Source of the DNA: a virus | Lineage: Duplodnaviria > Caudoviricetes | DNA: 64,000 nucleotides | Virus record (IMG/VR): IMGVR_UViG_3300030330_006019 | Coordinates: 1 to 64,000 of that record | Strand: one strand, 5' to 3' | Shown here: piece by piece, positions 16,876-33,785 of the stretch | Position numbering within the stretch: position 1 is the stretch's first letter | Layout of the letters: the number at the start of each line of letters is the position of its first letter | The notes under the pieces: model-generated | Databases searched by the model: none | Told to the model about the DNA's origin: nothing | The model's input: only the letters and a program-made list of their open reading frames with translations | Position numbers and translations under genes: made by a program

Positions 16876-17397
16876 TCATACAAGTTTGGTTATTAGTTTG
16901 ATTCGAGGATATTTCTTTTTTAGTGCATCAACTGCTCTAATATTTTTTGGACTATCATCCATAAAGTATATCGGGTTATACTTTCCTTTTCGTATTTGCT
17001 TTTCTATATAATCTGCTTTTTTCTGTGGATTTGCATCACCAAGTGGTACAATATATGGTTGAATACCTAGAGTTTTGAAAAAAGAATTTATTGGTGCACC
17101 AAGTCTTCTAGCAGTTAAAATAGTCACTTTCCTGCCACCTTTGCTTAATTGCTTACGTAACAAATCAACATTTTTCTTTATGATTTTAGGGTTTTTTAGT
17201 TTTTTATCAAAATCCTTAAAATTAAATGTTTCACCAACCTTTGGTACATATGTTGCAAATTCAGCTGGGTCTAACTTTTTTACCTCTCTTCCACCTTTCA
17301 TAACATATATCCAACTATCAGTTTTTGCCAATGTATCGTCAAAGTCAAATATACTGAGTGTTGTTGCTTCTCTTAATATGTTAGTCAATTTAATCAT
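16876..17397 (-). CDS. HAD-family phosphatase with N-terminal MIKLxxILxE leader
   Basis: FDFDDTL, ILTAR, K, FMDDS motifs. Confidence 0.85.
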   Translation of the reverse strand: MIKLTNILREATTLSIFDFDDTLAKTDSWIYVMKGGREVKKLDPAEFATYVPKVGETFNFKDFDKKLKNPKIIKKNVDLLRKQLSKGGRKVTILTARRLGAPINSFFKTLGIQPYIVPLGDANPQKKADYIEKQIRKGKYNPIYFMDDSPKNIRAVDALKKKYPRIKLITKLV

Positions 17398-17434
17398 AAT
17401 TGTGTATCAGGATACCAGTTATCCCATTCATCAT

Positions 17435-18448
17435 CTATAAATATTTTAGATAATTTTTCCATTTCATTTCTGCTCTTGTTGCTGCTTTTTCATAAGGATG
17501 AGTTTTGTAATCATATTTTCCACTATCATAACCTGCTTTGAACTTTTTTCTATTTTGTAATGTATGAGTATGCTCATGAAGTAATGACCTAATTATTTGT
17601 TCAGTGTTAGATATTGCTGATGCATATAAATATATTTTTCTTTTATCCCAGTCATATTCACCATAAGGATTGTTGTCAACCATTAAATCTTCTTCACCAA
17701 CTGCACCAAGTCTTCTGTATATATTATTATGTACTTCAACCTTTACAGCTCTTCCACCTAAATCTTTTACTATGTGTGGATAAACTTTACTCACCACATC
17801 CAATATTTCCATTTTAGATGATTCAACAATAAATCTTTCATTTAATGGTTTATCAGATTGTTTAAGCTTTACAACCATTCTAACATTTCGTTTCTTTACA
17901 CTATATTCTGGTCGTGTTCTCTTTCCATATATGTAATCACCTTTTGGAAAATCAACCTGTGTATATCCTCCACCTTCAAACCAAGGTTCAGGTTTACCTT
18001 TTCTCATTCCTAATCTACGTGTTTTTCCACCAGGAATAAATCCAGTGTCTGGTTCTCCAGCGTCAGCAGTGTACGTACTATTACTACTGCCTTCATTCAT
18101 TTTTTTAGTTTTAGCTTTTAACTTTTCTAAATGTGCTGACCAAATTTGATATGCTTGATTTAAGTCTGATTTTTTTTCTGGGTCCTTTGCACGTTCCTTT
18201 GCAACCTTTGCACGTTGTTTCATAACAAGTGTTGCTTGTACTTTATGTGCATGAGTTCTTTTTGCCTTGTTGACTTTTGCAATTCCTTTTCTTGCAGTTG
18301 TTGCATTTTTGAAACCTAAACCATGTATAGTTCCTTTTGGGTCTTCATCAGTAAATAAATCAGAATGTTTACTGCTTTTTTTCTTTTGACCTTTTTTTCT
18401 GGCTTTTCTAGATTCAGCTTCATATAATATATCAGCAAGGCTAATCAT
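17435..18448 (-). CDS. Multidomain protein with C-terminal HExxH metallopeptidase-like domain; MISLxxILxE leader
   Basis: Basic HSDLFTDEDPKGTIHGLGF domain; LLHEHTH...PYE..A. Confidence 0.75.
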   Translation of the reverse strand: MISLADILYEAESRKARKKGQKKKSSKHSDLFTDEDPKGTIHGLGFKNATTARKGIAKVNKAKRTHAHKVQATLVMKQRAKVAKERAKDPEKKSDLNQAYQIWSAHLEKLKAKTKKMNEGSSNSTYTADAGEPDTGFIPGGKTRRLGMRKGKPEPWFEGGGYTQVDFPKGDYIYGKRTRPEYSVKKRNVRMVVKLKQSDKPLNERFIVESSKMEILDVVSKVYPHIVKDLGGRAVKVEVHNNIYRRLGAVGEEDLMVDNNPYGEYDWDKRKIYLYASAISNTEQIIRSLLHEHTHTLQNRKKFKAGYDSGKYDYKTHPYEKAATRAEMKWKNYLKYL

Positions 18449-18990
18449 TACTTCTTTTTACCTCTAACCTTTTTAGCAAGGTCTTTGTCGGCTTTACCCC
18501 AAGTACCTGGACTTTTTGTTGCAAAACTATTTACCCTTGCATATCCCCATTGTTGTTGACTTGCTCCAGGTCTATGTCCTGTTTTCCATGCAGCCATTCC
18601 TCTGTTAAAAACTTGTTTAAGTACACCGTATGGCATTCCAGATTTTTTGGCTTTCTTTTGAAGTGCTTTCTTTACAGGTGCACTTACCTCAGTATGAAGC
18701 TTTGACATTTCATAAACTTCTTTAAGAGTATTCCAACCAGCTTCACCAAACATTTTTTTGAATTTATTTGTATGCTGTGATGGTTTTGTCTTTTCGCCCT
18801 TGTCACTTCTAAATGGCTTATATGCATCTGGGTCGTCATCATCCATTTTACTTCTACGAGCAATTACATTTGACCGTTCTTTCTTTTCCTTTGCAGAAAG
18901 TCCTTTGTAATATTCTGGTGATTTTTTTGGATCCGCTCCAGCTGATTTTTTCTTTTTATCTTCGAATAGTTCTAATGTTTTTTTAATCAT
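18448..18990 (-). CDS. Basic protein, DUF5824-like
   Basis: VFNRGMAAWKTGHRPGASQQQWGYARVNSF...ADKDL motif, recalled from DUF5824 of algal viruses and phages. Confidence 0.65.
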   Translation of the reverse strand: MIKKTLELFEDKKKKSAGADPKKSPEYYKGLSAKEKKERSNVIARRSKMDDDDPDAYKPFRSDKGEKTKPSQHTNKFKKMFGEAGWNTLKEVYEMSKLHTEVSAPVKKALQKKAKKSGMPYGVLKQVFNRGMAAWKTGHRPGASQQQWGYARVNSFATKSPGTWGKADKDLAKKVRGKKK

Positions 18991-18994
18991 AATT

Positions 18995-19273
18995 TTATCC
19001 CATCATTGCAGCAGCCATTGCATTATTGGCTTTCTTTTTAGATTGATAACACGCTCGTGCTTTCATTCTTGGTTTACCTGATTTTGTTCTTTGTATACTT
19101 CCAATCTTTTTGCCTTTATATTTTTTTGGATTGTTTTCTTTCTCTGCCTTAGTAAGTTTATCATCTACATATGCACAAAACTTACCACCAACTTTTCTTA
19201 CATCTTCTTCAACATCTTCAATGTTTTCTACATCTTCAATAAGATTCATTATTTGTTTATAATACTTTTCCAT
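18995..19273 (-). CDS. Hypothetical basic protein
   Basis: Coupled by TAATG overlap. Confidence 0.65.
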   Translation of the reverse strand: MEKYYKQIMNLIEDVENIEDVEEDVRKVGGKFCAYVDDKLTKAEKENNPKKYKGKKIGSIQRTKSGKPRMKARACYQSKKKANNAMAAAMMG

Positions 19274-19968
19274 TATGGTGCCTCTATTGCTGAAATTTGG
19301 TCTTGTGCATTCTTTTTTGATGTATGACAGTTACTAAACTTTTTACCTTTTTTACTAGTATATGATAATGTATAAGTTCCTCTATCACCATCGGACTGTT
19401 TACAAGCCTGTTTTCTTATGTTATATTTTTCCTTTAGATTAGTAATTTTATTACCTTTGTTTTGAAAAACTAACCCGTCCTTTCTTAGCATTAAGACTAA
19501 CTCTCTACCAAACTTATTTCCACGAATATTTGAAAAAGCACCTTTGTTTGTTTTTTTGTCCCAGTTAGACCAAACAGATTCAATTGCCTTAAACATTCTA
19601 TCATCTGAAATATTTTTTAATGCCATTATAATTTTCTTTTCATTCTTTTTTACATACTTTTCAAAATCTAGATATGCAAATTCATTTGGTGACTCAGTCG
19701 GAAATGGTACATTAGTCAAACCAAATCTTCCGTGCTTTTTAGCCGTTGCACTCATTTCATCTAAATCTTTTACTTTTTTATATGCTGAACCATAAGGGGA
19801 AGATTTTCCATCATGGTCAGTTACTGTATTATCTGCAACACGTCTCTTAAGAGATATTCCTGCAGGCTGACCTCCAACTGTATTATCAAGAGAACGACCT
19901 TTTTCATAATATCCAGTCCAAGAAAATGAACCAATTCTTTCAAATATTTTTAGTGTTTGTTTTATCAT
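19273..19968 (-). CDS. Hypothetical protein (putative virion-internal)
   Basis: MIKQTLKIFE leader; internal LDE and LKE sites. Confidence 0.7.
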   Translation of the reverse strand: MIKQTLKIFERIGSFSWTGYYEKGRSLDNTVGGQPAGISLKRRVADNTVTDHDGKSSPYGSAYKKVKDLDEMSATAKKHGRFGLTNVPFPTESPNEFAYLDFEKYVKKNEKKIIMALKNISDDRMFKAIESVWSNWDKKTNKGAFSNIRGNKFGRELVLMLRKDGLVFQNKGNKITNLKEKYNIRKQACKQSDGDRGTYTLSYTSKKGKKFSNCHTSKKNAQDQISAIEAP

Positions 19969-19977
19969 AATGTTTTC

Positions 19978-20310
19978 CTACCAAGTTCTACATGCCCAGT
20001 ACCTAGCTTTATGTTTAGGTCCAGGATTGTCACAATTAAATCTAGCTCTAAAGTTTGCCCGAGCCTTTGGATTGTTTTTTCTTATTCTCATAGTACCACC
20101 TTTAGCATCACCACCTTGTCCAAAGTTTACCTTTACAACATTACCTTTTGGATTTTTTACATATACCTTAAACTTTTTTGCATCACCTTGCATTATCTTA
20201 TTAAGTTTTACTTTACGACCTTGATATTCAGCCTCAGCAAATAATATTGGTTCTGATGACTCGTATATTTCAAGTCTTAAGTTTTTATTTTTGTATATTG
20301 TTTTTTCCAT
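19978..20310 (-). CDS. Conserved basic phage protein
   Basis: KKFKVYVKN..GNVVKVNFG...R.NFRARFNC...ARYWACR.W, recalled from large marine phages. Confidence 0.75.
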   Translation of the reverse strand: MEKTIYKNKNLRLEIYESSEPILFAEAEYQGRKVKLNKIMQGDAKKFKVYVKNPKGNVVKVNFGQGGDAKGGTMRIRKNNPKARANFRARFNCDNPGPKHKARYWACRTW

Positions 20311-20319
20311 AATTTTTTC

Positions 20320-21048
20320 CTATCTACAGTTTCTAGCATATTGAGTTAAAAAATCATTCAAATCTCTAAATGCAGCTAAACCTTCACCAAGATGGCCTTT
20401 AGGAATTCCTGGTGTATTTTCGGCTTCACCATCTGAAAGTCTTTCTCCAAGTGCCAACATATATCTACAAGAAGAATATTTTTCTAATATATCTTTCTGA
20501 CCAGCCGCTGGTACTCTACTAAACCATTCAACTGCAAATGCTCCCTTCTTTTTTGTACGTCCATCTGAATCTGTTTCTTGTTTTAATCTAACAACATTTC
20601 CTTTTCTATCCAATCCAACTTTTGACCCAGATTCATTTATTACTGGTTCATTTGGGTTAAAAAAACTAGCACTAAGAGTTGTACCATCAGTTTTAGTCTT
20701 TGCCAAAAATTTTGGATTCGTAACTCTAAAACAAAATTGCGTGGATGCTCCATCACTCGAACTACACATTCTTTCTGCACGTATACCGTACTTTAAGTCA
20801 TCTCCATCAATTGCCCTGTCATACATTCCTTCAGCTGATGCTGATGCCTTTATACCAGCAATTTTATCTGCCTTCTTAAATAGTGGGCGTCTTTCACCGT
20901 CCTTATCACGACTAATTAATCGTCTCTTATCAGTTTCCTTTTGAATTATTATTTCACTAGTTGGTACTTCTTCAATTTTTTCACCACAGTGTTCACAAAA
21001 TTCTTCAAGTATTTGCTGACTACCACTAAATGTCATTCTTAGAACCAT
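20320..21048 (-). CDS. Hypothetical protein
   Basis: 242-aa ORF, TAATG coupled, N-terminal CEHC. Confidence 0.7.
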   Translation of the reverse strand: MVLRMTFSGSQQILEEFCEHCGEKIEEVPTSEIIIQKETDKRRLISRDKDGERRPLFKKADKIAGIKASASAEGMYDRAIDGDDLKYGIRAERMCSSSDGASTQFCFRVTNPKFLAKTKTDGTTLSASFFNPNEPVINESGSKVGLDRKGNVVRLKQETDSDGRTKKKGAFAVEWFSRVPAAGQKDILEKYSSCRYMLALGERLSDGEAENTPGIPKGHLGEGLAAFRDLNDFLTQYARNCR

Positions 21049-22481
21049 TATATCTCCAACTGTTTATTTATTTCTTCCCTTACTGTTTTAATAAATTTTG
21101 ACTCATTTGTATTTTCTAAACCTAAAGCTGTGACTATATCTAAAACATTATAGTCATCTTCAAGTCCTGACTTCTTTAATTCAGTTTTTACAATTTCTTT
21201 AACCTTTTCTATATCTTCATCATCTTCACTTACACCAGATGCTTTTGCCATTTCACCAGCACCAACATTACTAGCACTACCAATTGCAAATCCTTGTTTT
21301 ACAACAGGGTGGCTGGCCATACTAGCTTCTTTCATATTCTTCATCCAACCAAATGCATCCATTGTATATGCCATTGCAGCTTCTGGATCCTTTTCTTTTA
21401 GTTTTTTAATTAATGCCTTTACACCTTTTCTATGAAAATGTTTTTCTGGTAATCTATCCAATGCATTCTTAAACTTGTTTGAAACTGTTGGATACTTTTT
21501 TGCTTCATTAACCTCTTTGACCTTCTTCTCTTTAGCCATTAATTGTTGAATTTTCAAAAGAGTTTCTTTATCTTTTTTAGAAAGTTTACTCATAATTTTT
21601 TGTCTATGCATATCTTTTAATGCTTTTTCCCATGATTCAGTTGATTCTGCAACATCTGAACCATCAATTTTTGCTTCAGCATCTTCAGCATATCCATAAG
21701 CCGATGGAGCTTTAACAGCTGCACCACCTCTTTCAGTCATTTCTTTCTGTATTAAATCACGTAGTAATACTTTTAATTCTTTAACATCAACATCTTCTAC
21801 ATCTTTTGTTTCATTTGCTTTCTTTAGCATATCAATCAACTTCTCAGCTTGTCCACCATGTAGTTTACTTGCACCTCTTAATTGTGTTACTATCTTTTCT
21901 ATTTTATCAGCTTGTCCACCATGTAGTTTACTTGCGCCTTTTAGCTGTGTAATTATTTTTTCTATAGATTTTTCATAATCTTTAATTGGCTTTTTGTTTT
22001 CTTTAACAAGTTTCAAATCACCAGCACTAGCACCAGCAGCACCTAAACGATATTTGTTTCTCATACCTGTAGGTTTTATATTATATGTACCATTACCAAA
22101 ATCATGTATGACTTCATGTTTTTCACCTTTATGAGGTCCCTTATTTGGAATTACAATACTACCTTTTTTTATTTTAGCTTCTGTTATTTTGCCTTCATTC
22201 TTTGCAGCATTTTGTTTTTTTCTTAATTCTGCTGGGTTATCGGCTAGTCCATCCTTACCATCTAAATAATTGTATACACTTTGTAAATAGTCCATTGACT
22301 TTGTCAACTTTGACTGCACCCATGAAGGAAACTGTAACTTATCAGAATCACCACCATAATTGTCCATGAAATCATATATCATTTTTGCATATTCCATAGA
22401 ACGCTCAAGTTGTGATTTTGCCATTTGGCCTTCGTTATCTTCAAGCTCAGTTAATTGTTTTTTTGTTATTTTGTTTTTCAT
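21048..22481 (-). CDS. K/E-rich modular protein, possible head core or internal protein
   Basis: EGQMAKSQL...WVQSKLTK..DYL module; many hydrophobic-x-E sites (LTE, ITE, VKE, MTE, VNE, MKE); internal 21-aa duplication. Confidence 0.7.
   Translation of the reverse strand: MKNKITKKQLTELEDNEGQMAKSQLERSMEYAKMIYDFMDNYGGDSDKLQFPSWVQSKLTKSMDYLQSVYNYLDGKDGLADNPAELRKKQNAAKNEGKITEAKIKKGSIVIPNKGPHKGEKHEVIHDFGNGTYNIKPTGMRNKYRLGAAGASAGDLKLVKENKKPIKDYEKSIEKIITQLKGASKLHGGQADKIEKIVTQLRGASKLHGGQAEKLIDMLKKANETKDVEDVDVKELKVLLRDLIQKEMTERGGAAVKAPSAYGYAEDAEAKIDGSDVAESTESWEKALKDMHRQKIMSKLSKKDKETLLKIQQLMAKEKKVKEVNEAKKYPTVSNKFKNALDRLPEKHFHRKGVKALIKKLKEKDPEAAMAYTMDAFGWMKNMKEASMASHPVVKQGFAIGSASNVGAGEMAKASGVSEDDEDIEKVKEIVKTELKKSGLEDDYNVLDIVTALGLENTNESKFIKTVREEINKQLEI
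21844..21965. repeat. 63-bp tandem duplication inside the 477-aa gene
   Basis: tcagcttgtccaccatgtagtttacttgc at 21844 and 21907; protein IEKI(I/V)TQL(K/R)GASKLHGGQA twice. Confidence 0.9.
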
Positions 22482-22484: not shown

Positions 22485-23735
22485 TTACTTTCCATACATT
22501 CTTTTAACTACATTTCCACCTTTTTTAAGTTTTCTTTCATAATATCCATTATCAAGGTGCTTTATAAATTTAGGACCAACCATTCTTTCAATTTTACTTT
22601 TGTCAGTTATTACAGGTGCGCCTTTCCCTATCATAATATCATTCATCTTTTTACTAGCTTCTAAACTATAACCTTCAGATTTTACCATGTTTACAACTTT
22701 TTTAACAACTGCACTCTTACTTGGTCCTTGACCATCAGTTGCTAATAATTTTACACGATTACCTCTTGTGAATATAAAGGCATCTGGCATAGGGTCTTTA
22801 TCAACATCGATTAACATTACTATTTCATATCCAGATTTTAACTCTGATGGTGAAAATGCTGATAGTTGCATACCTTCTGAAGAATAGACAGCTTTGTAAT
22901 GCTTAAATATATCATTCATTATTCTATCATCTATATTAGATAATTGTTGCTTTATCCATTTCTTTTTTGGATGGTTATCTAAATCATAATTTTCAGGTAA
23001 TAAGTTTTTTAGTGATAACTTTTTTTCTTCAGCAATTGCAATAATAGCTGTGATTTTTGTTCTCTTTGTTATTCTGTATTCATTTAAGTTTACATGTTTT
23101 TTCAAATGTTCAAATAGTGACTTTGCTAAATTTACACCAAATGATGTATCTGATGCATAATGAACTTTTGCAACCATTCTTGAATTTGCAACATCTGCAC
23201 CTAAATTCATTAACTCCATACTATGCTCTGGATATATTTCTGATAGTATTAATGAAATTAATGTTCCTTGAGTTGCATGTCCTGATGGATATGCTGGTGT
23301 TTGTGCAGATTCTAATGGTTCTTCATGAAATCTTAATCTGTATGATTCTGCTATTTGTTTAGGTCTAGGCCTGTTGTAATGATATTTTAATTTTAATACT
23401 ATTGACCTTACAGCTTTGGTAACCTCTGTTATAAATGCCTTTGGAAAAACATGGTCACATCCACATGAATTTTCAATAAACCATTTTTCAAAATATTCTA
23501 TTGTTTTATCACCTTCATGTATAAATTTGTTATCTAATGGAATAGCATCAATTTGAAGTATTTCTCTAAATGTTGCTTGACTACTATTTTTTGGTGGTGG
23601 CATTGCCATCCACTGTGATGTATCAAAAGTATCAAATGGTTTTGCAGGATTGTTTATTACATCCAGATGTTTCTTTTTGATATTATCTGAATATACCATA
23701 TTATTCATATTTACTATGTCAACTAAACTAATCAT
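22485..23735 (-). CDS. PAP2/vanadium-haloperoxidase-superfamily phosphatase fused to a C-terminal unknown domain
   Basis: K..YNRPRP, PAYPSGH, SR....HY.SD. Confidence 0.85.
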   Translation of the reverse strand: MISLVDIVNMNNMVYSDNIKKKHLDVINNPAKPFDTFDTSQWMAMPPPKNSSQATFREILQIDAIPLDNKFIHEGDKTIEYFEKWFIENSCGCDHVFPKAFITEVTKAVRSIVLKLKYHYNRPRPKQIAESYRLRFHEEPLESAQTPAYPSGHATQGTLISLILSEIYPEHSMELMNLGADVANSRMVAKVHYASDTSFGVNLAKSLFEHLKKHVNLNEYRITKRTKITAIIAIAEEKKLSLKNLLPENYDLDNHPKKKWIKQQLSNIDDRIMNDIFKHYKAVYSSEGMQLSAFSPSELKSGYEIVMLIDVDKDPMPDAFIFTRGNRVKLLATDGQGPSKSAVVKKVVNMVKSEGYSLEASKKMNDIMIGKGAPVITDKSKIERMVGPKFIKHLDNGYYERKLKKGGNVVKRMYGK

Positions 23736-24322
23736 TAGTATTGTTCCATTCTATCCAATTTAGCCATAAGTTTTTTGAACTGAGCCTTTTTCTGTTTATA
23801 TTCTTTTTGTTTCTTTTCAATCTCTCTACCATATCTAGTGGCTTTAGGACCACCTTCCGGTTCAGCTTCTTGTTCCATGTCTTTGTAAAGTTCACTTAAG
23901 GCTTTATTAATCATTTGCATATCCATTTCAATATCCATTATCTCGTCTTGTAATTTCATTTTAGCATCAAAATGTTTCCAAAGACTAGTAGCTTCAGTTA
24001 ATTTGTTTTCATCTACAGAAGAAACCAATGCAAATGGCATTTGTAATTCATCTTGTTCTTCTTTATCTTCAGTCTTAAGTCCTTTTTTGATTTTGTTTAC
24101 TAACATCATCAATTCACCAGAATCTATTTTTAATGCCTCTATCAATCCGGCCAATAAAACTTTTTGTTTTTGGCGATTTAGATTTGCACCCCTGATTGCT
24201 GATAAAAACTTTTCCATGTATCTTTTTATTTCAGAAGGTAATGAAGGTGTTGCTTCAGTTACTTTGCTTTCATTTAATTCTTGGCGTATCATATTTTTAA
24301 TTTCATTTAATAATTTACTCAT
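23735..24322 (-). CDS. Coiled-coil protein (putative virion-internal)
   Basis: Start moved to MSKLLNE (ATGA overlap at 24319-24322); LNE, VTE and LTE sites. Confidence 0.7.
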   Translation of the reverse strand: MSKLLNEIKNMIRQELNESKVTEATPSLPSEIKRYMEKFLSAIRGANLNRQKQKVLLAGLIEALKIDSGELMMLVNKIKKGLKTEDKEEQDELQMPFALVSSVDENKLTEATSLWKHFDAKMKLQDEIMDIEMDMQMINKALSELYKDMEQEAEPEGGPKATRYGREIEKKQKEYKQKKAQFKKLMAKLDRMEQY

Positions 24323-25020
24323 GATTTTCTCAACTCCAATTCTTTTCTTATCCATGCTTTTGCAATTGGATTTTGTACTGGTTTAGACATAAATGAATTT
24401 GCTCCACGCTTAACTGCCCGTTCAAATTCTTTGTATTCACTATTGTCCACTATTAACATATTACTTGCACCAAATAAACTTTGAAATTTTCCAAGATTAC
24501 TTTGTACATCTGACCAGCCTTTCTTTACAACATCCGTTGGTACTTTTCTTTCACGCCTTTGATTTCTTTTTAATGCAACATCTAAATCGGTATTAACAAA
24601 TACCATGTAGCAATCATATCCAACAGACTCTAATCTTCTTTTTTGTTTTGCTATTTTTGCATAATCTTTTCCAGTTCCATCAATAAGCAATCCAAGTCTT
24701 CCATTTATATAATTCTTAAGAGCAGCATCTCTAACCTTTTTACTCTTTTTTCTTATCTCCATAGCTTGTTCATATTCTGCTGGTGTCATCTTTGCAATAT
24801 CTTGGGATAGTCCACTCATTTTCAAATATGTTTCAAAGTACTTGTCACTATTAACAGATTTTAGTCCTTTTGCAGAAACAAATGGCATTTTTTCTGGCAT
24901 ACCAAATAATGTAGATGCAACATATGACTTTCCACTACCAGGACCGCCAGCTGTGAACACAGCCTTAAATATACCCGGGTCATATACACCTTCTGTTAAT
25001 ATGGCAACAAGTTTAATCAT
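24319..25020 (-). CDS. P-loop kinase, zeta-toxin-like/AAA_33, with MIKLxxILxE leader
   Basis: AGGPGSGKS, VNSD, LLIDGTG, FVNTDLDVALKRN..RER. Confidence 0.85.
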   Translation of the reverse strand: MIKLVAILTEGVYDPGIFKAVFTAGGPGSGKSYVASTLFGMPEKMPFVSAKGLKSVNSDKYFETYLKMSGLSQDIAKMTPAEYEQAMEIRKKSKKVRDAALKNYINGRLGLLIDGTGKDYAKIAKQKRRLESVGYDCYMVFVNTDLDVALKRNQRRERKVPTDVVKKGWSDVQSNLGKFQSLFGASNMLIVDNSEYKEFERAVKRGANSFMSKPVQNPIAKAWIRKELELRKS

Positions 25021-25496
25021 GAAGCCCTTTTCAATACATTAACATTTTTCAATCCAGCTAAGAAATCATCCGTAAGAAAAACTGCTCTTCCTATTTCTCT
25101 TTCAGGACCTTTATCTGGATAGTTAGGTCTCTCCTCTACCATCACTGCTGTTAGGTTTACACCACCTGTTCCAAAATCCCTATGATGATATTGAGTTTGG
25201 TGTATAAAGTATTTCTTTCCGTCCTTTCCTTCAACAACATGATACTGTATATGTACAAACATAACTCCTTGAGTTCTGTTCATATTTTGGTCTATGAATT
25301 TTACTTGCTTTTGAGCTTTACCAAGGTTTACCTTTGAAAAACCAGCTTTCTTTAATGTTCTTTCTACTGCTTTTGCATTCTGTGTATTTCTACTGTACAT
25401 GTCCATAGGGTCAAAGTCATATTCAGTAAACTCGTTTAATTGGTGCTTACCTTCTAATAGTTCTCTTCTCCATTTTGAGTCATTAAATTTTGTCAT
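25017..25496 (-). CDS. Hypothetical protein (putative virion-internal)
   Basis: LLE/LNE near the N-terminus; coupled to neighbours. Confidence 0.7.
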   Translation of the reverse strand: MTKFNDSKWRRELLEGKHQLNEFTEYDFDPMDMYSRNTQNAKAVERTLKKAGFSKVNLGKAQKQVKFIDQNMNRTQGVMFVHIQYHVVEGKDGKKYFIHQTQYHHRDFGTGGVNLTAVMVEERPNYPDKGPEREIGRAVFLTDDFLAGLKNVNVLKRAS

Positions 25497-25498: not shown

Positions 25499-25885
25499 TT
25501 ACACATCCAATACTTTATTTGTTGTTTGAAAATTTTTCTTTCTCATCACTGTTTTTACTATTAAATCCAATTCACCATCTTTATCCTGTGCAAATACAAA
25601 TGGCATATTTATATCACTTCTCATGTCCTTTATAACGGCTTGAGCATCTGATGTTAGAGATGGTAATTTTTTTCCATACTTATTCCATGTTCTCTTAAAA
25701 ACACCAATTAATTCTGCTGATGATATTGGCTTTATATTTCTCTTATCATTAACACGTTGTCTAAAGTGTCTTGTAAAATCAACGTCGATACCTGCTGCCG
25801 CAAAAAGTTTATCTGCATAACTTTCAACATTACGCATATCACTCTTTGTTACATACTCAAATAGTATATCTGTTAATTTAATCAT
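25499..25885 (-). CDS. Conserved phage protein, possible BECR-fold RNase-like; MIKLTDILFE leader
   Basis: FTRHF.QRVND.RN...KTVMRK resembles the H-x-x-x-R...T signature of BECR-type nucleases; fold is inferred. Confidence 0.55.
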   Translation of the reverse strand: MIKLTDILFEYVTKSDMRNVESYADKLFAAAGIDVDFTRHFRQRVNDKRNIKPISSAELIGVFKRTWNKYGKKLPSLTSDAQAVIKDMRSDINMPFVFAQDKDGELDLIVKTVMRKKNFQTTNKVLDV

Positions 25886-26106
25886 TACTTTCCATTACCT
25901 TTTATTTTTTCTATTGAACTTATACCAAAGCTACCTAAAGTAACAATGACAAATGAATTATATATTACTTCATTTATTACAAGTTCCATACCACACCATC
26001 CAGTAATTAAATCTGCAATTGCAAATAATACCATTAATATAAATGATGCAAAGCCAACAATGGCCTTTTCATTTATATCATTTTCATCCTTAAATAATTT
26101 CCACAT
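25885..26106 (-). CDS. Small 2-TM membrane protein (holin-like size)
   Basis: Two hydrophobic helices and a charged C-terminus. Confidence 0.7.
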   Translation of the reverse strand: MWKLFKDENDINEKAIVGFASFILMVLFAIADLITGWCGMELVINEVIYNSFVIVTLGSFGISSIEKIKGNGK

Positions 26107-26453: not shown

Positions 26454-26456
26454 AAC

Positions 26457-26747
26457 TTATCTCCTGTTTAGTTCATCAATTTTTTCCTCAATCCTGTCCA
26501 AATCTTCCTTTATTTCTTCAACGTCTTCTTGAGTATTCTCTATGGTTAAACGTATGTTTTTATCCTTCATATCAAATTCCATTCTTGTGACATCCGGTGG
26601 AGGCGGAACTGGTAATTCTTTTGCCTCTTCAATATCTGCCTGTAGTGCAAACCACATTCCGATAACTGTTGCCATTGCGAATCCAATTGCAATAAGGGTT
26701 TTTATACTAACCTTAAAACCTGAATCTTCATTTAATTCCTTTGCCAT
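26457..26747 (-). CDS. Single-TM protein with Pro linker and C-terminal coiled coil
   Basis: TM LIAIGFAMATVIGMWFAL, PVPPPP, heptad VEEIKEDLDRIEEKIDEL; AGGAG SD. Confidence 0.75.
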   Translation of the reverse strand: MAKELNEDSGFKVSIKTLIAIGFAMATVIGMWFALQADIEEAKELPVPPPPDVTRMEFDMKDKNIRLTIENTQEDVEEIKEDLDRIEEKIDELNRR

Positions 26748-26757
26748 GTGTAAACTC

Positions 26758-27837
26758 CTAAAATATTACGTAGTTAAGTCCAAAACTAAAATCGTGCCAA
26801 TTACGATTCCAGTACTTATTATATTTTCCTTCAACAAATAACCCTAATTTTTTTGGTATAACATAATATCCAAATATAAGGCCACCTGAATAATCTATCC
26901 ATTGTCCACCGTTATATTCATGATAACTAAATTCACCACCATCATCATAATGATATGGCATTACGTTACCCCAACTATGTAACCAAAATTCTTTTGTGAA
27001 ATGATAAAAATCAAATCCAATAACAACTGAATATTGAAATGTTTGGTCTAATTGATTTCTCTTCTTTTCAGTATAATCTGATAATACAGTTGGTATAACA
27101 ACACCTTCCCATATTGCCGTATTTTCTGCAACTAAGTTTCCTGATGGATTGTAATAGGTTTCACCACCTTCACCATCGAATTGTATTGTATAGCCTTCTT
27201 GTATTGCTAATTGAGTATAATGTAAATTACCATTTGATAACATCCATTCTTCCAAAGGATCATATCCATAAGGTTCAGATAGTCTTTGTACTGCACCTAT
27301 ATTAAATGATAATTTATTACCAACCTTTTGCCTAAATCGTTGAGATGCTTCAAAGTATTCTATATCTGCAAATCCATCTTGTAAATATTCAACCTTAACA
27401 ATCCACCTGTCTGCTACATATCTCAAAAAGTGATTTTGGTCTAAAAAGTTAGTACCTTGTTGTCTTCTATAATCAGCTTCAAATAAAAATTCAAACCCAG
27501 AAACTCGACCAATTGTTGCTGCATCACTAAAACTATTTTCTGTACCATTATAAAATGTATTTGCTCTATTCTCATATCCTAATCTTGCAATCTTTCTTAC
27601 ACCAGCTGTAAGTGAATAATCAAATGGAGTAGAAATTGTATTTGTTTCTAAACCATTAGTAACTGAAAAAATATCTACATCTGAAACTGAATTACCTCCA
27701 TTTACAGCACCATAAAATGTTGCAAACTTAAATGTCTTTTTAAGACTTTTCTGTATTTTATCAAACTTATTATCTTTAACTTCTTGACCAAACACTAATG
27801 CTGGTAACATACATAGTATGATTAGTAACTTTTTCAT
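26758..27837 (-). CDS. Outer-membrane beta-barrel protein
   Basis: Signal peptide, aromatic-rich alternating strands, C-terminal FSFGLNYVIF. Confidence 0.75.
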   Translation of the reverse strand: MKKLLIILCMLPALVFGQEVKDNKFDKIQKSLKKTFKFATFYGAVNGGNSVSDVDIFSVTNGLETNTISTPFDYSLTAGVRKIARLGYENRANTFYNGTENSFSDAATIGRVSGFEFLFEADYRRQQGTNFLDQNHFLRYVADRWIVKVEYLQDGFADIEYFEASQRFRQKVGNKLSFNIGAVQRLSEPYGYDPLEEWMLSNGNLHYTQLAIQEGYTIQFDGEGGETYYNPSGNLVAENTAIWEGVVIPTVLSDYTEKKRNQLDQTFQYSVVIGFDFYHFTKEFWLHSWGNVMPYHYDDGGEFSYHEYNGGQWIDYSGGLIFGYYVIPKKLGLFVEGKYNKYWNRNWHDFSFGLNYVIF

Positions 27838-28148
27838 TTTCTTTTACTCCTATTTTTATTAGGCTTATTTGGTTTATTATTCCAAGTTGGTCTATGACCA
27901 TTATATGTAGGTTTATTATTTGGTTTTACAATTACATAATTAGTTGTTTGCTTTGGTCTTGTTAGCCACCACCAATTATAATAATTTGGATATGTTTCAT
28001 AATGATATGTAGTTGGTGGTTTACAACATGCATGGTTAGTCAAGCAAGGTTCACCTCTTAGCATTAATTCACATTTGTGCGGTGCTTCATATGTTAAAGC
28101 ACAACTTGTAAATAACATTGTTAATAATATGTAAATAATCTTGTTCAT
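27834..28148 (-). CDS. Lipoprotein, Cys-containing with Pro/Asn/Lys-rich tail
   Basis: Lipobox LFTSC. Confidence 0.7.
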   Translation of the reverse strand: MNKIIYILLTMLFTSCALTYEAPHKCELMLRGEPCLTNHACCKPPTTYHYETYPNYYNWWWLTRPKQTTNYVIVKPNNKPTYNGHRPTWNNKPNKPNKNRSKRK

Positions 28149-31100
28149 TATTTTTGCTTTATTACTCGTTTAGTTATTTTTAATTTATCATATGTTATGA
28201 CTATATTGTACAATCCTTCTGATATTTCTGAAATATCTAGTCTTTTAGCATTTTCTTTTGACAATATTAATCTTCCCATCATATCGTATAATTCTACATT
28301 AACATCTAATCTTGTATCAATGTTTAATATATCTCGTGTTGGATTTGGGTATATTACAATAGTACCAGAACCTGACATTTCATCAATAGATACTGGCCAT
28401 CCATCTTGGCAATAGTCGTACATTGATTGACAACTTGCATCCCAATCATTTGTACAACAATAATCATCAACATCAATTACCCAAGCATAACATCCATCAT
28501 TTAACCAATAAGGTATACCTGGTCCTCCATAACAACCTGCATCATATAAACATGCGTCTGGGTCAGATACATTGGCTAATGGGTCAAAGTTATATGCGCC
28601 TACATCTGTACAACCTACGATTATAGTTACACAGGTTCCATCATCATAACATGCATCTGGGTCATAATTAAGTGCAGTAGCATCAGTACAGCCACCTATA
28701 TAACAACAACTATTATCTAAAGTATTTGCCAATGGGTCATAATTAAGTGCAGCGGCATCAGTACAACCATAAACAAATGGTTCACATGTTCCGTTATCAG
28801 TATTAGCTAATGGGTTATAGTTAAACTGGGTTGAATCAGTACATCCATAAATAAACGGAATACAATTTCCTGATGATGTATTTGCTAGTGGGTCATAATT
28901 CCACATTGTCGGATCCATACAACCAATAACTACTGGGATACAACTATTATCATCTGTGTTTGCAAGAGGGTCATAGTTAAACATTGTTGGGTCTGTACAT
29001 CCGTATACATAAGGTATACATGAACCATCATCTGTATTTGCAGTTGCAGAGTAATTATACATTGTTGAATCAGTACATCCATAAATATATGGTATACAAG
29101 TTCCATCATCATCTGTAGCAGTTGGGTCAAAATTAATTGATAATGGGTCTGTACAACCAGCAATTTCTAATTCATCACAAATTCCATCACCATCAGTATC
29201 ATTTATACATGCACCATAACAATCATAATATTGTGTTGGGTAAATACATCCACCATTATCTACATTTGCAATTGCATCGTAATTACATGCTGTTACATCT
29301 GTACAACCTAGATATATACATGAAAAGTCATCAACATTTGCTAAGGGATTGTAGTTATATGCCAAACTATCAGTACACCCGTTAACAATAGGAATACAAC
29401 TGTTATCATCAACCGTTGCATTTGGGTCATAATTTATTGCAAAAATATTTGTACATCCATATATAATAGGAATACAACTGTTATCATCTACATTTGCCAA
29501 TGGGTCATAATTTGCAGCCGTACTATCTGTACATCCATACACTACTGGAATACATGTATTTCCACAAAATGGTACTCCAGTATATTTTGTCCAAAATGGA
29601 GATTCAAATGATTGAAGTGCTCCTTGACCATTATTAGCAAAAGGATTCTGTCCTTCATGCATTAACACAACACCATCTGCATTTGTTAGCTTAAATGAAT
29701 TGTGCCATGTTTGGAATTGTACTTCCTGAGGTGGTTGTTGTGGTCCACCTATTTCAAAATAAAATACTTCTACTGGAACTCCTGGGTCTAATACGATATT
29801 CCAAGTTTGTTGATAATTACCTGGTCCCATTGTATAAGTTCCAAGATTTATACCATTTTGATAAACTCCAATAAATGAGTTACCCCAACCATCACCACCT
29901 GCATCGCCAATCCATAATTCATAGTCACAATCTGGAGTTAAGTCCATCATTGTTGCAGTAGGGTCATAATTAAATGCTGCTGGGTCTGTACAACCATAAG
30001 TATGTAATGTTGCACAAGTTCCATCATCTATGTTTGCGGCTGGATTGAATTCAACATAATCATCATCAGTACAACCTAAAACATCTGGAATAACTGGACA
30101 AGGTGTTGCTGTTTGTGGTCCTGAATATAATACATTTCCAAAACCTGGATTGTCCATATACCAAATAGTATCTCCAGCACAATCATATATTACAGCTGCT
30201 CCATCAATAGAACCACCTGATGTAGAACCTGCCATTCCATCACCATAGTCATCATTTAATATTAATTCAAATGCAGCATTTTGGTCTACACAGAATGAAT
30301 AAGTATATGTTTGTCCTATATCATTAAAATCATAAGTTCCTACTGGATAATCAAATGTATTACCTAAGCCATCAACAAATTGCCAACTTGTTTCACCTGG
30401 CCAATTATCTAATGTTAATGAAAGAGATATTTGATATTGTGTGTTTGTATCACATGTTGTTCCTGAACATGAACCGTCATCTATTGTTGCCCAAGGATTA
30501 TATGATATTTGAGCTGGGTCTAAACAACCTGGAATACACGAGTATGGAGTATAAGCAATTGTATCTGACATTGAACCATCTGCAAACTCTAACTGACAAT
30601 AAAATTCTTCTTCCCAATTAGGTGGCATTTGACCTGGTCCTGTATTAAATGCAAAGTTATGAGGTCCGCCAGCTGGCCAATAACCTGGAAATTGAAATGG
30701 TCCTAAGCCATTTTCATTACTTATCCATACACTTACAACTTCACAATTATTACCTGGAGCAGTTTCCCATTCAAATATAGATAATGCTTGACCATTTGGT
30801 TGACAGTTCTGATATGCATTACTAAAAATAAGACCACCACATGGAGGATACGTACATGAACCATCATCAATTGTTGCAAGTGAATTGTAATTGGTTGCAT
30901 TTGTATCTGTACACCCAGTTACTGGTGGTGCACAAGGTTGTATGATAAGATTGTTTGCTAAATATGTTGTACCAAAATCACCAGCCACATATGCCAATGT
31001 ATCTTGACAATCATTTTGTATTAGTAACCAACCTTCTGGTGAGCCATTCCATCCAGCTAAACCATCACCATAAGAATCATTTAGTGTAAATTCAAATGGA

Positions 31101-31318
31101 CTATCTAATGAAGATAAATCAACTATTTCATCATATAAAGTTTCAGCTGTTAATACTGAATCACTCTCAGCAATTAGTTGTCCTGAACCATCTGTTAGTG
31201 TCCAGCTAGTTTCGTCTGGATAAGCATCAGTTAATAATTGTATATTTATCCAAGTATCTGTTGTTTGTGCAAATATTACTGATGGTAATAATAGCAATAA
31301 AAATAATAACTTTCTCAT
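28148..31318 (-). CDS. Large secreted surface protein with 16 Cys/Asp-rich repeats and a T9SS type A C-terminal sorting domain
   Basis: Signal peptide; GCTDxxAxNYDPxAxxDDGSC repeats; D.YP.ETSW...DSYGDG domains; C-terminal IYPNPTRDILNI...YDMMGR...LDIS....GLY....KRVIK. Confidence 0.9.
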   Translation of the reverse strand: MRKLLFLLLLLPSVIFAQTTDTWINIQLLTDAYPDETSWTLTDGSGQLIAESDSVLTAETLYDEIVDLSSLDSPFEFTLNDSYGDGLAGWNGSPEGWLLIQNDCQDTLAYVAGDFGTTYLANNLIIQPCAPPVTGCTDTNATNYNSLATIDDGSCTYPPCGGLIFSNAYQNCQPNGQALSIFEWETAPGNNCEVVSVWISNENGLGPFQFPGYWPAGGPHNFAFNTGPGQMPPNWEEEFYCQLEFADGSMSDTIAYTPYSCIPGCLDPAQISYNPWATIDDGSCSGTTCDTNTQYQISLSLTLDNWPGETSWQFVDGLGNTFDYPVGTYDFNDIGQTYTYSFCVDQNAAFELILNDDYGDGMAGSTSGGSIDGAAVIYDCAGDTIWYMDNPGFGNVLYSGPQTATPCPVIPDVLGCTDDDYVEFNPAANIDDGTCATLHTYGCTDPAAFNYDPTATMMDLTPDCDYELWIGDAGGDGWGNSFIGVYQNGINLGTYTMGPGNYQQTWNIVLDPGVPVEVFYFEIGGPQQPPQEVQFQTWHNSFKLTNADGVVLMHEGQNPFANNGQGALQSFESPFWTKYTGVPFCGNTCIPVVYGCTDSTAANYDPLANVDDNSCIPIIYGCTNIFAINYDPNATVDDNSCIPIVNGCTDSLAYNYNPLANVDDFSCIYLGCTDVTACNYDAIANVDNGGCIYPTQYYDCYGACINDTDGDGICDELEIAGCTDPLSINFDPTATDDDGTCIPYIYGCTDSTMYNYSATANTDDGSCIPYVYGCTDPTMFNYDPLANTDDNSCIPVVIGCMDPTMWNYDPLANTSSGNCIPFIYGCTDSTQFNYNPLANTDNGTCEPFVYGCTDAAALNYDPLANTLDNSCCYIGGCTDATALNYDPDACYDDGTCVTIIVGCTDVGAYNFDPLANVSDPDACLYDAGCYGGPGIPYWLNDGCYAWVIDVDDYCCTNDWDASCQSMYDYCQDGWPVSIDEMSGSGTIVIYPNPTRDILNIDTRLDVNVELYDMMGRLILSKENAKRLDISEISEGLYNIVITYDKLKITKRVIKQK

Positions 31319-31464
31319 ATTTCAAATCCCAAATTAAATATCATAAATCTAAACTTACTTGCTTCCCACTTCATTTCTAATACTGTGAAAGTACCAACTC
31401 TAAATTCTAGGTAGTACTTCTCTTTTTTATTTCCGGCGTCAAACCCGTTTATCCAGTTAATCAT
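31315..31464 (-). CDS. Small hypothetical protein (49 aa, not in ORF track)
   Basis: Manual translation MINWINGFDAGNKKEKYYLEFRVGTFTVLEMKWEASKFRFMIFNLGFEI; GGGAG SD; ATGA overlap with the T9SS gene. Confidence 0.6.
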   Translation of the reverse strand: MINWINGFDAGNKKEKYYLEFRVGTFTVLEMKWEASKFRFMIFNLGFEI

Positions 31465-31480: not shown

Positions 31481-31786
31481 TTAATATTCAAATGGCGGTG
31501 TACCATATTTATCTTTGTCAATTCCATGCCAAACATTTCCAATTTGAAAATACCACCACCCATATTTTGTGTCATCAACAACCTTAAACTTTCTAGGTAA
31601 TTTAACTGTCTTTTGTGGTGCTCTTGCAATGTACTTAAGAACAGGAGTTCCATCATCCCAAGTTCTTGTTGTTGATTGTGTTTTTGCACTATTTCCACCG
31701 GAAGCTGTATACATTTTTGCTCCAGGAATATCCGTTAGCAATCCCTTATACCCATCTTCATTTAATAATTTAGACAATTTAATCAT
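31481..31786 (-). CDS. Hypothetical protein with MIKLSKLLNE leader
   Basis: Leader motif; AGGAG SD. Confidence 0.7.
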   Translation of the reverse strand: MIKLSKLLNEDGYKGLLTDIPGAKMYTASGGNSAKTQSTTRTWDDGTPVLKYIARAPQKTVKLPRKFKVVDDTKYGWWYFQIGNVWHGIDKDKYGTPPFEY

Positions 31787-32325: not shown

Positions 32326-32330
32326 TTCTT

Positions 32331-32720
32331 TTATCCTTTGAATACTTGTTTTTTGCCGCCGTGATACTCGTAAGCATGTCCTTCGGCTTTAAGTTGTTCA
32401 TTTATATTATATTGCTTACCTTCACTATCCATTATAAAAATCTCACCAAGTACTCTACCATATTTACCAACACCGTAAGATTTTAATCTGAAATATCCAG
32501 GCTTGCTGGATACTTCATTTAATAGTTGTTTATTTCTAGCCTTTGCAGCTAATCCTTTTTTCTTTTCATCCAGGTCTCGAGTTCTACTTTCCCAAGTATC
32601 AATTCCCATATATCTGATTCTTTTCTTAACCCATATATCAAAACCTACATCGATAAGAGCATCAATAGTATCACCATCAACCACTCTATCTAATTTTGCC
32701 CTGTAGATATACTTATCCAT
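32331..32720 (-). CDS. Thermonuclease (SNase-like)
   Basis: RVVDGDTI, RIRYMGIDTWE, GKYGRVLG, INEQL..EGHA. Confidence 0.9.
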   Translation of the reverse strand: MDKYIYRAKLDRVVDGDTIDALIDVGFDIWVKKRIRYMGIDTWESRTRDLDEKKKGLAAKARNKQLLNEVSSKPGYFRLKSYGVGKYGRVLGEIFIMDSEGKQYNINEQLKAEGHAYEYHGGKKQVFKG

Positions 32721-33196
32721 TAAAATGCAGCTCGTCTAATTCTATCCATTAAAAATTCTAGAATTTCATCATTTTCAAATCCTTCATCATACAAATCTTT
32801 TTGTATAATTTTTGCACCAATAATGACTTGTTTCATTGCTTTCATATTATGAAGTCCGTCCATTCTTTTTGCAGTTGCAAGATTTAATCTTTCATCAACA
32901 GATTCTCTTTTAGGTCCATGCTTTTTATATATATCTTTGAACTCCTTTTTAGCTTTAGGAGATAAATATCTTTCGATACCAAATGCATTAGCTGGTCCAA
33001 TCAATGAAGCTATTCTACCTCTTAAGATTTGCTTACTATATTTTCTACCATAGGGAGACCTCATAATAAAATCCATCATACCCTGAGCTAAATCTTTTGA
33101 CATCTTGATTCCTTCAATAGAAGTTGTTCTTCCTTTGATTACATCTGTCAATCCAGCCTTTGTAGATATTTCATTTATAATGTTTCTTAATTTCAT
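32720..33196 (-). CDS. Hypothetical protein with MKLRNIINE leader
   Basis: Leader motif; AGGAGG SD. Confidence 0.7.
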   Translation of the reverse strand: MKLRNIINEISTKAGLTDVIKGRTTSIEGIKMSKDLAQGMMDFIMRSPYGRKYSKQILRGRIASLIGPANAFGIERYLSPKAKKEFKDIYKKHGPKRESVDERLNLATAKRMDGLHNMKAMKQVIIGAKIIQKDLYDEGFENDEILEFLMDRIRRAAF

Positions 33197-33198
33197 GA

Positions 33199-33438
33199 TT
33201 ATCCTCCTATCTTTGCATATGTATGCATATCTGCTAGAGCTTTAAGTGCTTTCTTTTTAGCCTTTTCAAATTCTTTTCCATATCTTCCTGAACCACCACC
33301 TTTTTGAGCAAGGTTTGCCATTTGAAATATTTTTTTAATATTTTCAGCTTCTGGGTTCTTTCTCATTTTAGGTGCAGCTTCATTTGTTTCCTTTTCAGGT
33401 GAAAAAGCTTTTTGCGATATTATTGTTTTTAATTTCAT
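33199..33438 (-). CDS. Small basic protein with MKLKTII leader
   Basis: Leader-like N-terminus; AGGAG SD. Confidence 0.65.
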   Translation of the reverse strand: MKLKTIISQKAFSPEKETNEAAPKMRKNPEAENIKKIFQMANLAQKGGGSGRYGKEFEKAKKKALKALADMHTYAKIGG

Positions 33439-33785
33439 TATTTCTCTCCTACGATTCTAGACATTAATTTTGGATAACCTGAAACTACTAGTAAATTCTT
33501 AAGCATTTTTTGTAATACTGTTTTATCAGAACCTTCAGCCGTTTTAAGTTCATGTTTTATATGATTGACAAATGCTTTACAGTTAGACTCAAATTCTTTT
33601 GCAAATTGTCTGTCCATTTCAGCTTCTGTTAGTTCTTCATTTTGTTTTCTAATTTTTTTACCAGCCTTTACAGCAGCTTTATAAGATTTAGACCGTGGGT
33701 CTGACTTTTCACCACGCTTCTTTTTAGCATGAATGTTTGCCCAAAGACCCTTGTTCTTTTCAGTAATTATGTCTTGTAGTTTCAT
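33438..33785 (-). CDS. Basic protein with MKLQDIITE leader
   Basis: GLWANIHAKKKRGE motif; internal LTEA site. Confidence 0.7.
   Translation of the reverse strand: MKLQDIITEKNKGLWANIHAKKKRGEKSDPRSKSYKAAVKAGKKIRKQNEELTEAEMDRQFAKEFESNCKAFVNHIKHELKTAEGSDKTVLQKMLKNLLVVSGYPKLMSRIVGEK

Follow-up and report, generated by a model that had tools for sequence, protein, structure and literature searches.

In coliphage T4, the first 10 residues of the internal protein IPIII suffice for packaging; mutations have mapped targeting to residues 4 and 7 and processing to residues 8 and 10, and the protease gp21 cuts after L/I-X-E (PMC9026906). The tag has been suggested as a general protein-loading route of T4-like phages (PMC9026906). 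Internal proteins found in T-even phages are diverse defence proteins with only this tag in common, and T4 IPI* blocks a modification-dependent nuclease in the context of sugar hypermodified cytosine (PMC3012670). From the T4 genome (NC_000866) we read the propeptides MKTYQEFIAE/A (IPII and IPIII), MAKINELLRE/STT (gp24), MELITE/ (Alt), MLKEQLIAE/A (gp22) and MEGLIE/A (gp67), where the slash marks the cut. Here we describe an operon in which a similar N-terminal leader precedes a series of unrelated proteins. It lies in the window analysed in this work, the first 64 kb of the 105,255-base IMG/VR record IMGVR_UViG_3300030330_006019, a linear genome fragment of an uncultured marine phage with an estimated completeness of 42% (CheckV). 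Sequence comparisons make it quite probable that this leader is the lineage's own T4 capsid-targeting sequence, and that the proteins bearing it are packed into the head, shortened there by its protease and brought into the host along with the DNA.

The strict form of the leader, M(I)[KS]Lxx[IL][ILV]xE, begins 7 of the 146 open reading frames (ORFs), with 0.003 expected at N-termini from residue frequencies. All seven, on the minus strand (Table 1), were found exactly where a first-pass annotation of the window had placed them, and the five looser forms that it listed were also present, two of them following a second pattern, MIKxTLxxFE. Internal occurrences of the core motif amount to one in 33,661 residues, and among 1,380 Met-initiated subsequences from all six frames the strict pattern was found at the 7 gene starts only. 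An [LI]xE whose last position is residue 10 occurs in 8 proteins (1.6 expected). A motif scan of the whole proteome, as had been suggested with that annotation, confined the leader to the gene set of the operon: beyond 16.9-33.8 kb the 105-kb contig gave no strict match. This covers the glycan and replication genes, from which the leader had already been said to be absent. The same was observed in relative G001 (IMGVR_UViG_3300030060_007423, 170.8 kb), which is syntenic with the contig at 80-90% nucleotide identity and where, over the whole sequence, the motif was found on the orthologous locus and nowhere outside it. An early [LI]xE (at most 22 residues from the start) is present in 15 of the 20 genes of the two leader blocks and in 19 of the 126 genes elsewhere (Fisher P = 1.3e-7). 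The set had been put at a dozen proteins or more; we count 9 strong candidates and about 6 weaker ones.

Once stripped of their tags, these proteins gave no BLASTP match among themselves at E < 1e-4, and they fall into different Pfam families, which bears out the claim that the leader sits on unrelated proteins. Paralogy as the origin of the common N-terminus was ruled out, with no similarity beyond the leader. The leader genes have unrelated DNA on their 5' side and encode the conserved Leu, Ile and Glu by varied codons; selection therefore acts on the peptide and not on the DNA. We built a profile from 64 distinct decapeptides of this phage, its relatives and IMG/VR homologs: residues are fixed at positions 2-4, 7, 8 and 10 (I, K, L, I/L, L, E) and variable at positions 5, 6 and 9, although positions 4, 7, 8 and 10 were partly constrained by the pattern used for collecting. 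Conservation at positions 4, 7, 8 and 10 agrees with the targeting and processing positions of IPIII, in line with the T4-type tag proposed initially. The common N-terminus could alternatively be a feature of the RNA or DNA, such as a translation-initiation region or a recombination cassette, with no function as a peptide. AT-rich codons after the ATG are frequent in highly expressed genes, and recombination at the conserved tag is believed to reshuffle the loci for internal proteins in T-even phages. We nevertheless consider this explanation very improbable given the unconserved upstream DNA, the varying codons, a pattern of fixed and variable positions that is one of amino acids, and the occurrence of the same junction inside long proteins, far from start codons. 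Without the tag, all 9 strong candidates have an isoelectric point (pI) of at least 9.46 (proteome median 6.66, with 23% of proteins reaching 9.4; Mann-Whitney P = 6e-6), and such basic mature cargo fits DNA-associated internal proteins. In AlphaFold models of the kinase and of the 128-aa protein (predicted local distance difference test scores of 88 and 89, respectively), the tag forms a short helix of low confidence that is not part of the fold.

The strongest evidence at the sequence level is the retention of the predicted cleavage junction through gene fusion and fission. In three cargo families followed through viral contigs, a hydrophobic-x-Glu junction is fixed at the domain boundary and the part upstream of it varies, being a 10-residue leader, a longer propeptide or another module. 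For the kinase family, with at least 599 relatives in IMG/VR, the 80 loci retained gave 66 unique upstream sequences. The residue at P1 is Glu in 63/66, P3 is Leu or Ile in 62/66 and P1' is Gly in 60/66, for a propeptide length of 6 to 77 residues (mode 10). The upstream part is the 10-residue MIKLxDILxE in 34/66, and others include MIPFILKE, MKLIDIVQLTDMINE, a 28-residue extension ending with FTLVE, and long modules ending with ...PLKE or ...ILINE. Standalone members of the 128-aa family carry T4-like leaders (MKTFLEITE/, MKTFKQIVDE/, MKTFLTYLDE/), and fused members form the end of 200-530-residue proteins behind ...SINE/, ...PIKE/ or ...LLVE/. The C-terminal module of the PAP2 protein follows an internal relic of a leader here (SLKNLLPE/, nt 22992-23015); elsewhere it is standalone, with MIKLIDILKE/DYNLDDHPKKKW, MIKLADILRE/, MIKLVNILGE/ or MKLRQVLNE/ ending at the same residue, and in further phages it comes after unrelated modules ending with ...PIEE/ or ...KLDE/. 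Two junctions can be followed in G001. At ...GKITE/AKIKKG in the 477-aa protein, the G001 ortholog begins MAKIKKG at this very junction, and at ...KKMNE/GSSNSTY in the 337-aa protein, the G001 leader (V)ISLKQILE/ runs straight into GSSNTSTY. The basic module of the 337-aa protein is itself a standalone leader protein in G002, a more distant relative with a sheath identity of 57%. Hydrophobic-x-E motifs had been noticed between modules in the window, and the fusion and fission events fall exactly on them. The HAD family offers a natural control, as close homologs retain the leader and the junction is lacking in distant ones (35-39% identity) that are embedded in proteins with >500 residues upstream. 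Two proteins that at first appeared to be leaderless, the G002 kinase (apparent start at the P-loop) and the G001 HExxH ortholog (apparent start MRKGKPEPWF), both carry a leader behind a non-ATG start.

A junction of this kind might also be read by other machinery, with the operon's HExxH protein acting as a processing peptidase, or a phage GroEL/ES-type chaperone or a host factor recognizing the tag, which would then be a maturation or localisation signal unrelated to the capsid. The HExxH module is encoded within the operon, and metallopeptidase domains have been proposed as processors of polyvalent phage proteins (PMC5512222). However, Glu at P1 with Leu/Ile at P3 is what marks the sites of gp21-type proteases, this motif recurs in the capsid and core proteins of the close relative, and the HExxH module, for which the family assignment is weak, is absent or rearranged in relatives that retain the tag. 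We find such a role quite unlikely.

The contig has a GC content of ~31% and 144 of the 146 called ORFs are on the minus strand. It stops within a Gp23-family major capsid gene (PF07068, 1e-23, 104969-105214 of the contig), and PhoH, a neck adaptor, a 914-aa tail sheath, a tail tube and a baseplate hub are encoded 3' of gp23 in the direction of transcription. From these T4-type capsid, sheath, tube and neck genes we assign the source phage to the T4-superfamily myoviruses. Among cultured phages, Flavobacterium phage vB_FspM_immuto has the closest capsid protein (65% identity), with Microcystis phage Mel-JY01 and Rhodothermus phage RM378 next. Based on these capsid relatives and on the signal-peptide genes and genes of type IX secretion system (T9SS) type in the window, the host is probably a member of the Bacteroidota. 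A megablast search with the leader locus against GenBank phages gave no match.

In T4, the gene order 20, 67, 68, 21, 22, 23 places the expected protease gene just past the point where the contig breaks at gp23, and a review counts gp21, gp22 and gp23 in the core gene set of every T4 relative (PMC2993671). The search for a gp21-like prohead protease, another check proposed at the outset, was negative on the contig itself and positive in the syntenic G001 at the place where the contig ends. There, a gp21-type Peptidase_S77 protease (6e-30; phrog_207 6e-55) is encoded a few kb 5' of the sheath gene, just past the break point, and its alignment to the T4 gp21 structure 5JBL showed the His, Ser and Asp positions occupied. 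A gp21-type protease was also found in three more distant relatives (G002-G004). The G001 gp23 is 32% identical to T4 gp23, starts with MSNIGNLLNE/AG and has four [LI]xE sites in the ~61 residues before the region aligned with mature T4 gp23. We then compared [LI]xE counts in G001 proteins to composition-matched shuffles. Among head-module proteins, a 291-aa protein has 11 sites vs 4.2 expected (P = 0.0003), a 176-aa protein 7 vs 2.1 (P = 0.001), a 179-aa protein 8 vs 2.4 (P = 0.0003), the gp22-like acidic scaffold 14 vs 8.6 and the protease itself 6 vs 2.5; no enrichment was found in terminase and portal. The gp22-like scaffold was assigned from position, acidic composition and N-terminus only, and has no BLASTP similarity to T4 gp22, as expected for scaffolds. 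Judged by these counts, the [LI]xE-rich head-core proteins reproduce the T4 pattern of many-site chopping.

Tagged proteins might alternatively be accessory proteins of the prohead core or scaffold that are docked, cut, degraded and expelled at maturation, with a role in assembly only and no delivery. Head-core genes beside the protease do have similar tags, MKLKKLYE on the 179-aa protein and MAKSDLLKE on the gp22-like protein of G001, as does a 77-aa protein near the G002 protease (MIKLKDILIE), and T4 gp22, gp67 and gp68 follow this core-degradation behaviour. What separates the two groups is internal [LI]xE, for which true core proteins show strong enrichment and tagged proteins none (8 vs 8.7 expected). 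Many tagged proteins are moreover enzymes with intact motifs and confident folds, they are basic as T4 internal proteins are, and their genes are distant from the head module. We therefore regard a role in assembly alone as unlikely.

All leader genes belong to an operon running from 34390 down to 16504 in which every intergenic gap is < 45 nt. A promoter-like motif, TTGATATTTAT, lies 5' of its first gene (Table 1). Taken as GATATTTAT, this motif has 12 coding-strand occurrences, 10 of which are intergenic. Copies stand before PhoH, the neck adaptor, a 92-aa gene 5' of the sheath, a tail gene and the leader operon, and the motif is also found before the tube gene in G001 and before a leader trio in G002. 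The T4 late promoter TATAAATA was rejected as a candidate for the operon, with 17 coding-strand matches that are scattered, many of them intragenic, and none 5' of the leader operon; TTGATATTTAT appears to fit the role of operon promoter better. Separately, a longer upstream motif (TTTTTTTCCCAA(T/A)TATTCTAGTTATATTTATA) was seen 5' of non-structural genes at 3963-4118, 5325-5429, 5619-5770, 12112-12200 and 12657-12896, with further copies at contig positions 65826-65919 and 79284-79402, and probably represents a promoter class other than TTGATATTTAT.

Our favoured explanation, capsid targeting followed by delivery, would then proceed as follows. Late in infection, one long operon would be transcribed under a promoter-like motif common to neck and tail genes, yielding ~9-15 unrelated, strongly basic proteins: a kinase of polynucleotide kinase (PNK)/zeta type, HAD and PAP2 phosphatases, an HExxH protein, a RelE/RegB-like candidate RNase, a DUF5824 protein and small basic proteins. 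All of them would bear the amphipathic tag M-I-K-L-x-x-I-L-x-E, of which hydrophobic residues 4 and 7 would anchor the protein to the scaffolding core while the prohead assembles. A gp21-type serine protease (Peptidase_S77), presumably encoded just past the contig end, would cut after Glu10 of (L/I)-x-E, and the same protease would cut the equivalent junctions between modules of fused proteins. The freed mature basic proteins would remain with the packaged DNA and enter the host along with it. We infer physical packaging, cleavage, ejection and host function of the cargo from these comparisons, and its roles likely lie in early RNA or nucleotide-end chemistry, counter-defence or host takeover.

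Several observations weigh against this explanation. Neither a Peptidase_S77 protease nor a portal or a full capsid gene was found on the contig, so that the link to the head is made through relatives and the T4 gene order. The Glu is missing at the cut position in MISLVDIVNM and MKLKTIISQ; the 79-aa protein with the latter leader is possibly targeted yet uncleaved. Protease avoidance through depletion of internal [LI]xE was tried on the mature cargo and rejected, the count given above being close to that of composition-matched shuffles (P = 0.50). The motif TTGATATTTAT is also located 5' of a few non-structural genes and does not fix late timing. Signal-peptide and T9SS-type genes lie within the leader operon, and operon membership is thus by itself no sign of packaging. 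In G003, another of the more distant relatives, there is no position-10 peak, and the tag form is hence lineage-specific; the G003 kinase keeps the junction, behind a 28-residue extension ending with LVE/GVYDPG. Lastly, proteomic or N-terminal data for this lineage were not found in the literature searched.

Table 1. Promoter-like motif and tagged or candidate genes of the leader operon (positions in the window; a slash marks the predicted cut and a number before it the residue preceding the cut)
Feature	Position	Strand	N-terminus or junction	Leader form	Remarks
Promoter-like motif TTGATATTTAT	34429..34439	-			38 nt 5' of the operon's first gene
115-aa basic protein	33438..33785	-	MKLQDIITE/K (9 aa)	strict	Mature pI 10.0; G001 ortholog leader MKLQDILTE
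79-aa basic protein	33199..33438	-	MKLKTIISQ	looser, degenerate (Gln for Glu)	Same form in G001
158-aa basic protein	32720..33196	-	MKLRNIINE/I	strict	
101-aa basic protein	31481..31786	-	MIKLSKLLNE/D	strict	
128-aa protein, candidate endoribonuclease	25499..25885	-	MIKLTDILFE/Y	strict	Leader followed by possible RelE/T4-RegB-like (BECR) fold
159-aa basic protein	25017..25496	-	Early LLE15/ and LNE22/		Weaker cargo candidate
233-aa P-loop kinase, polynucleotide-kinase/zeta-toxin clade	24319..25020	-	MIKLVAILTE/GVYDPG	strict	
195-aa protein	23735..24322	-	MSKLLNE/IKNM	looser	G001 ortholog starts MSKLLNEIKNM
416-aa PAP2 phosphatase	22485..23735	-	MISLVDIVNM (no Glu10)	looser	PAP2 residues 112-203; C-terminal module residues 249-416
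477-aa multi-module protein	21048..22481	-	...GKITE/AKIKKG		Junction at nt 22164-22193
Three non-strict genes	18995..21048	-	92 aa ...NLIE13/; 110 aa ...EIYE17/; 242 aa ...QILE15/		Weaker candidates, longer propeptides
231-aa basic protein	19273..19968	-	MIKQTLKIFE/R	looser	
180-aa basic DUF5824 protein	18448..18990	-	MIKKTLELFE/D	looser	Pfam DUF5824 1e-20
337-aa protein	17435..18448	-	MISLADILYE/A; ...KKMNE/GSSNSTY (nt 18080-18106)	strict	Basic module, then junction, then HExxH module (HEHTH, nt 17564-17578)
173-aa HAD-type phosphatase, polynucleotide-kinase-phosphatase-like	16876..17397	-	MIKLTNILRE/ATT	strict	DUF2608 2e-5; phrog_415

The domain calls made from the letters alone stood in part, with matches for the HAD-like protein to DUF2608, for PAP2 (3e-12) and for the Zeta_toxin/AAA_33 kinase (7e-11); for the HExxH protein the motif is present and the family match is weak. 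For the kinase, the Pfam Zeta_toxin score is 42.4 bits against a curated cut-off of 22.3. Its Foldseek matches were the bacterial (C. thermocellum) Pnkp kinase 4gp6 (E 1.5e-6, TM 0.71 on target), zeta/PezT, T4 PNK, AvrRxo1 and PSTK, which rank together at E 1e-6 to 1e-4, polynucleotide-kinase and zeta-type folds alike. A sequence search against solved structures returned PSTK only for the kinase, at 2e-4, and nothing useful for the HAD protein, which matches a polynucleotide kinase-phosphatase PHROG. The DUF5824 protein corresponds to positions 607-678 of the 678 in phrog_3041, and is thus the C-terminal module of long proteins elsewhere. For the 195-aa protein, the longest ORF (23735-24355) overlaps the end of the kinase gene, and the true start is probably at 24322, directly after the kinase stop codon, and not at 24355.

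The 128-aa protein had been called RNase-like, and its model does resemble RelE (Z 6.6, root-mean-square deviation 3.0, 77 residues aligned) and RegB (Z 5.6, 120 aligned), with a Foldseek prob of 0.69, at scores that are moderate. Two aligners agree on this likeness, with all scores below the level of a confident fold call, so that we keep the BECR fold as a candidate and a lead only. Invariant residues in the family are H40, N46, R49, K111 and R115. A tagged 369-aa protein of G002 (L063:17219-18328, minus strand; leader MIHLSTLLAE) is a nucleotidyltransferase of CCA-adding/poly(A)-polymerase type (3e-30). By their predicted activities, the kinase, the HAD protein, the 128-aa protein and this nucleotidyltransferase hint at RNA-end chemistry.

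NMNAT/cytidylyltransferase-type long proteins were observed in G001 (L053:7681-10128, GRFQPMGKHH) and in Pelagibacter phage HTVC008M (L259:2163-3650, GRLNPPTVGH). They are encoded near head genes or beside the kinase, have T4-tag-like N-termini (MKTLKELLRK in HTVC008M), and in several IMG/VR contigs such an enzyme is fused 5' of the 128-aa module.

Other features of the contig were noticed alongside. A block of signal-peptide and membrane proteins (25885-31464, minus strand), none of them tagged, divides the tagged genes of the operon into two groups. One protein of the block, 1056 aa long, has repeated modules that contain Cys and ends with a domain likely of T9SS type. Among the tagged genes there is also a homolog of staphylococcal nuclease (PF00565, 6e-7; 32331-32720, minus strand), which has no leader (MDKYIYRAKL). 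At 60616-62575, adjacent 549-aa and 102-aa genes resemble GroEL and GroES, judged from their N-termini; T4 substitutes GroES alone (gp31). An intergenic sequence at contig positions 65062-65182, 5' of an 812-aa gene, resembles the 3' part of a tRNA (…GGTTCGATTCTCATTTACCACCCA).

Related tags were found in other phages. G002 carries MIKLKDLLxE-type tags on at least 8 proteins dispersed through its genome. In immuto, a strict DNA pattern for the leader gave 0 matches, being too strict; the translated genome showed related tags of 9-12 residues (e.g. MIKLIDLLTE/), clustered just 5' of the head genes. The kinase tag is MKTFAELQE/GVYDPN in Methylophilales phage Melnitz and MIPFILKE/GLYDPG in HTVC008M. 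We tentatively suggest, as a broader and rather doubtful extension, that the tag and junction form a general address label in marine T4-like phages whose hosts belong to several phyla (Bacteroidota, SAR11, Methylophilales), making the injected proteome predictable from genomes. The cargo would consist of plug-in cassettes fusing and splitting at prohead-protease sites and in the present clade would amount to a pre-packaged RNA-end-chemistry kit (PNK-like kinase, HAD phosphatase, RelE/RegB-like RNase, and the CCA-adding enzyme in relatives) acting on host or phage RNA before phage gene expression. Such a kit could repair tRNA damage from defence nucleases, or shut off host mRNA.

Injected proteins of marine phages are almost unknown, and most genes of such phages have no assigned function. 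If the tag acts as in T4, a simple sequence rule would pick about a dozen proteins per genome that are active in the first seconds of infection, the stage that decides counter-defence and host takeover, and would also account for the high modularity of these genes. The positional logic (4, 7, 8, 10) common to coliphage T4 and a probable Bacteroidota phage suggests an ancient docking site on the scaffolding core, and T4 protein-packaging technology may be transferable to other hosts. This prediction could be tested directly on the cultured phages in which related tags were seen (immuto, Melnitz, HTVC008M).

Among described systems, the closest is that of the T4 internal proteins. As in T4 IPI, IPII, IPIII and Alt, the same type of 9-10-residue N-terminal tag is found on unrelated proteins, with hydrophobic residues at positions 4, 7 and 8 and Glu10. 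Both systems have the (L/I)-x-E cut motif, a T4-type head module with Peptidase_S77 (here in relatives) and basic cargo, and in both the motif is also present on capsid and core proteins. The consensus is MIKLxDILxE here and MKTYQEFIAE in T4. The T4 gp24 propeptide MAKINELLRE/STT is a near-identical decapeptide to the leader of the HAD protein, MIKLTNILRE/ATT, and to that of the G001 gp23; in T4 it is on a shell protein, whereas here it is on enzymes and small basic proteins. The tagged proteins are ~9-15 in one operon compared to three plus Alt in T4, and they include a predicted kinase, phosphatases, a candidate RNase and an HExxH protein, with fusion and fission of modules at the junctions. 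A member of the Bacteroidota is the probable host, and the system is known here from sequence alone.

The ejection or inner-body proteins of phiKZ, 201phi2-1 and SPN3US likewise illustrate how many head proteins can be cut after the Glu of a short motif by gp21-related proteases, and the propeptides of giant phages are thought to direct proteins to the prohead (PMC5694885, PMC9026906). They differ in their motif (S/A-x-E or A-x-E), in propeptides mostly >100 residues long, in a protease of family S80 and in having no compact common decapeptide. Polyvalent proteins are multi-domain effectors for which packaging, injection and cleavage into units have been predicted (Iyer, Burroughs, Anand, de Souza, Aravind 2017; PMC5512222), and several modules found here occur within long multi-domain proteins of other phages. 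For polyvalent proteins an internal metallopeptidase was proposed as the processor, whereas the junctions described here fit a prohead protease and the cargo is mostly encoded by separate tagged genes, with 2-3 modules per protein and a weakly assigned HExxH module. The Dar proteins of phage P1 (DarA, DarB, Hdf and others) counter restriction, enter the head while it is being assembled and are injected together with the DNA, but their loading is ordered and protein-dependent, they have no common short tag, and the phage is not T4-like. No description of such a system in marine or Bacteroidota T4-like phages was found in the literature searched. Compared to these systems, four features are new here: the lineage with its probable host phylum, the consensus, the size of the set together with its enzymatic nature, and the evidence for fusion and fission of modules at the predicted cut sites.

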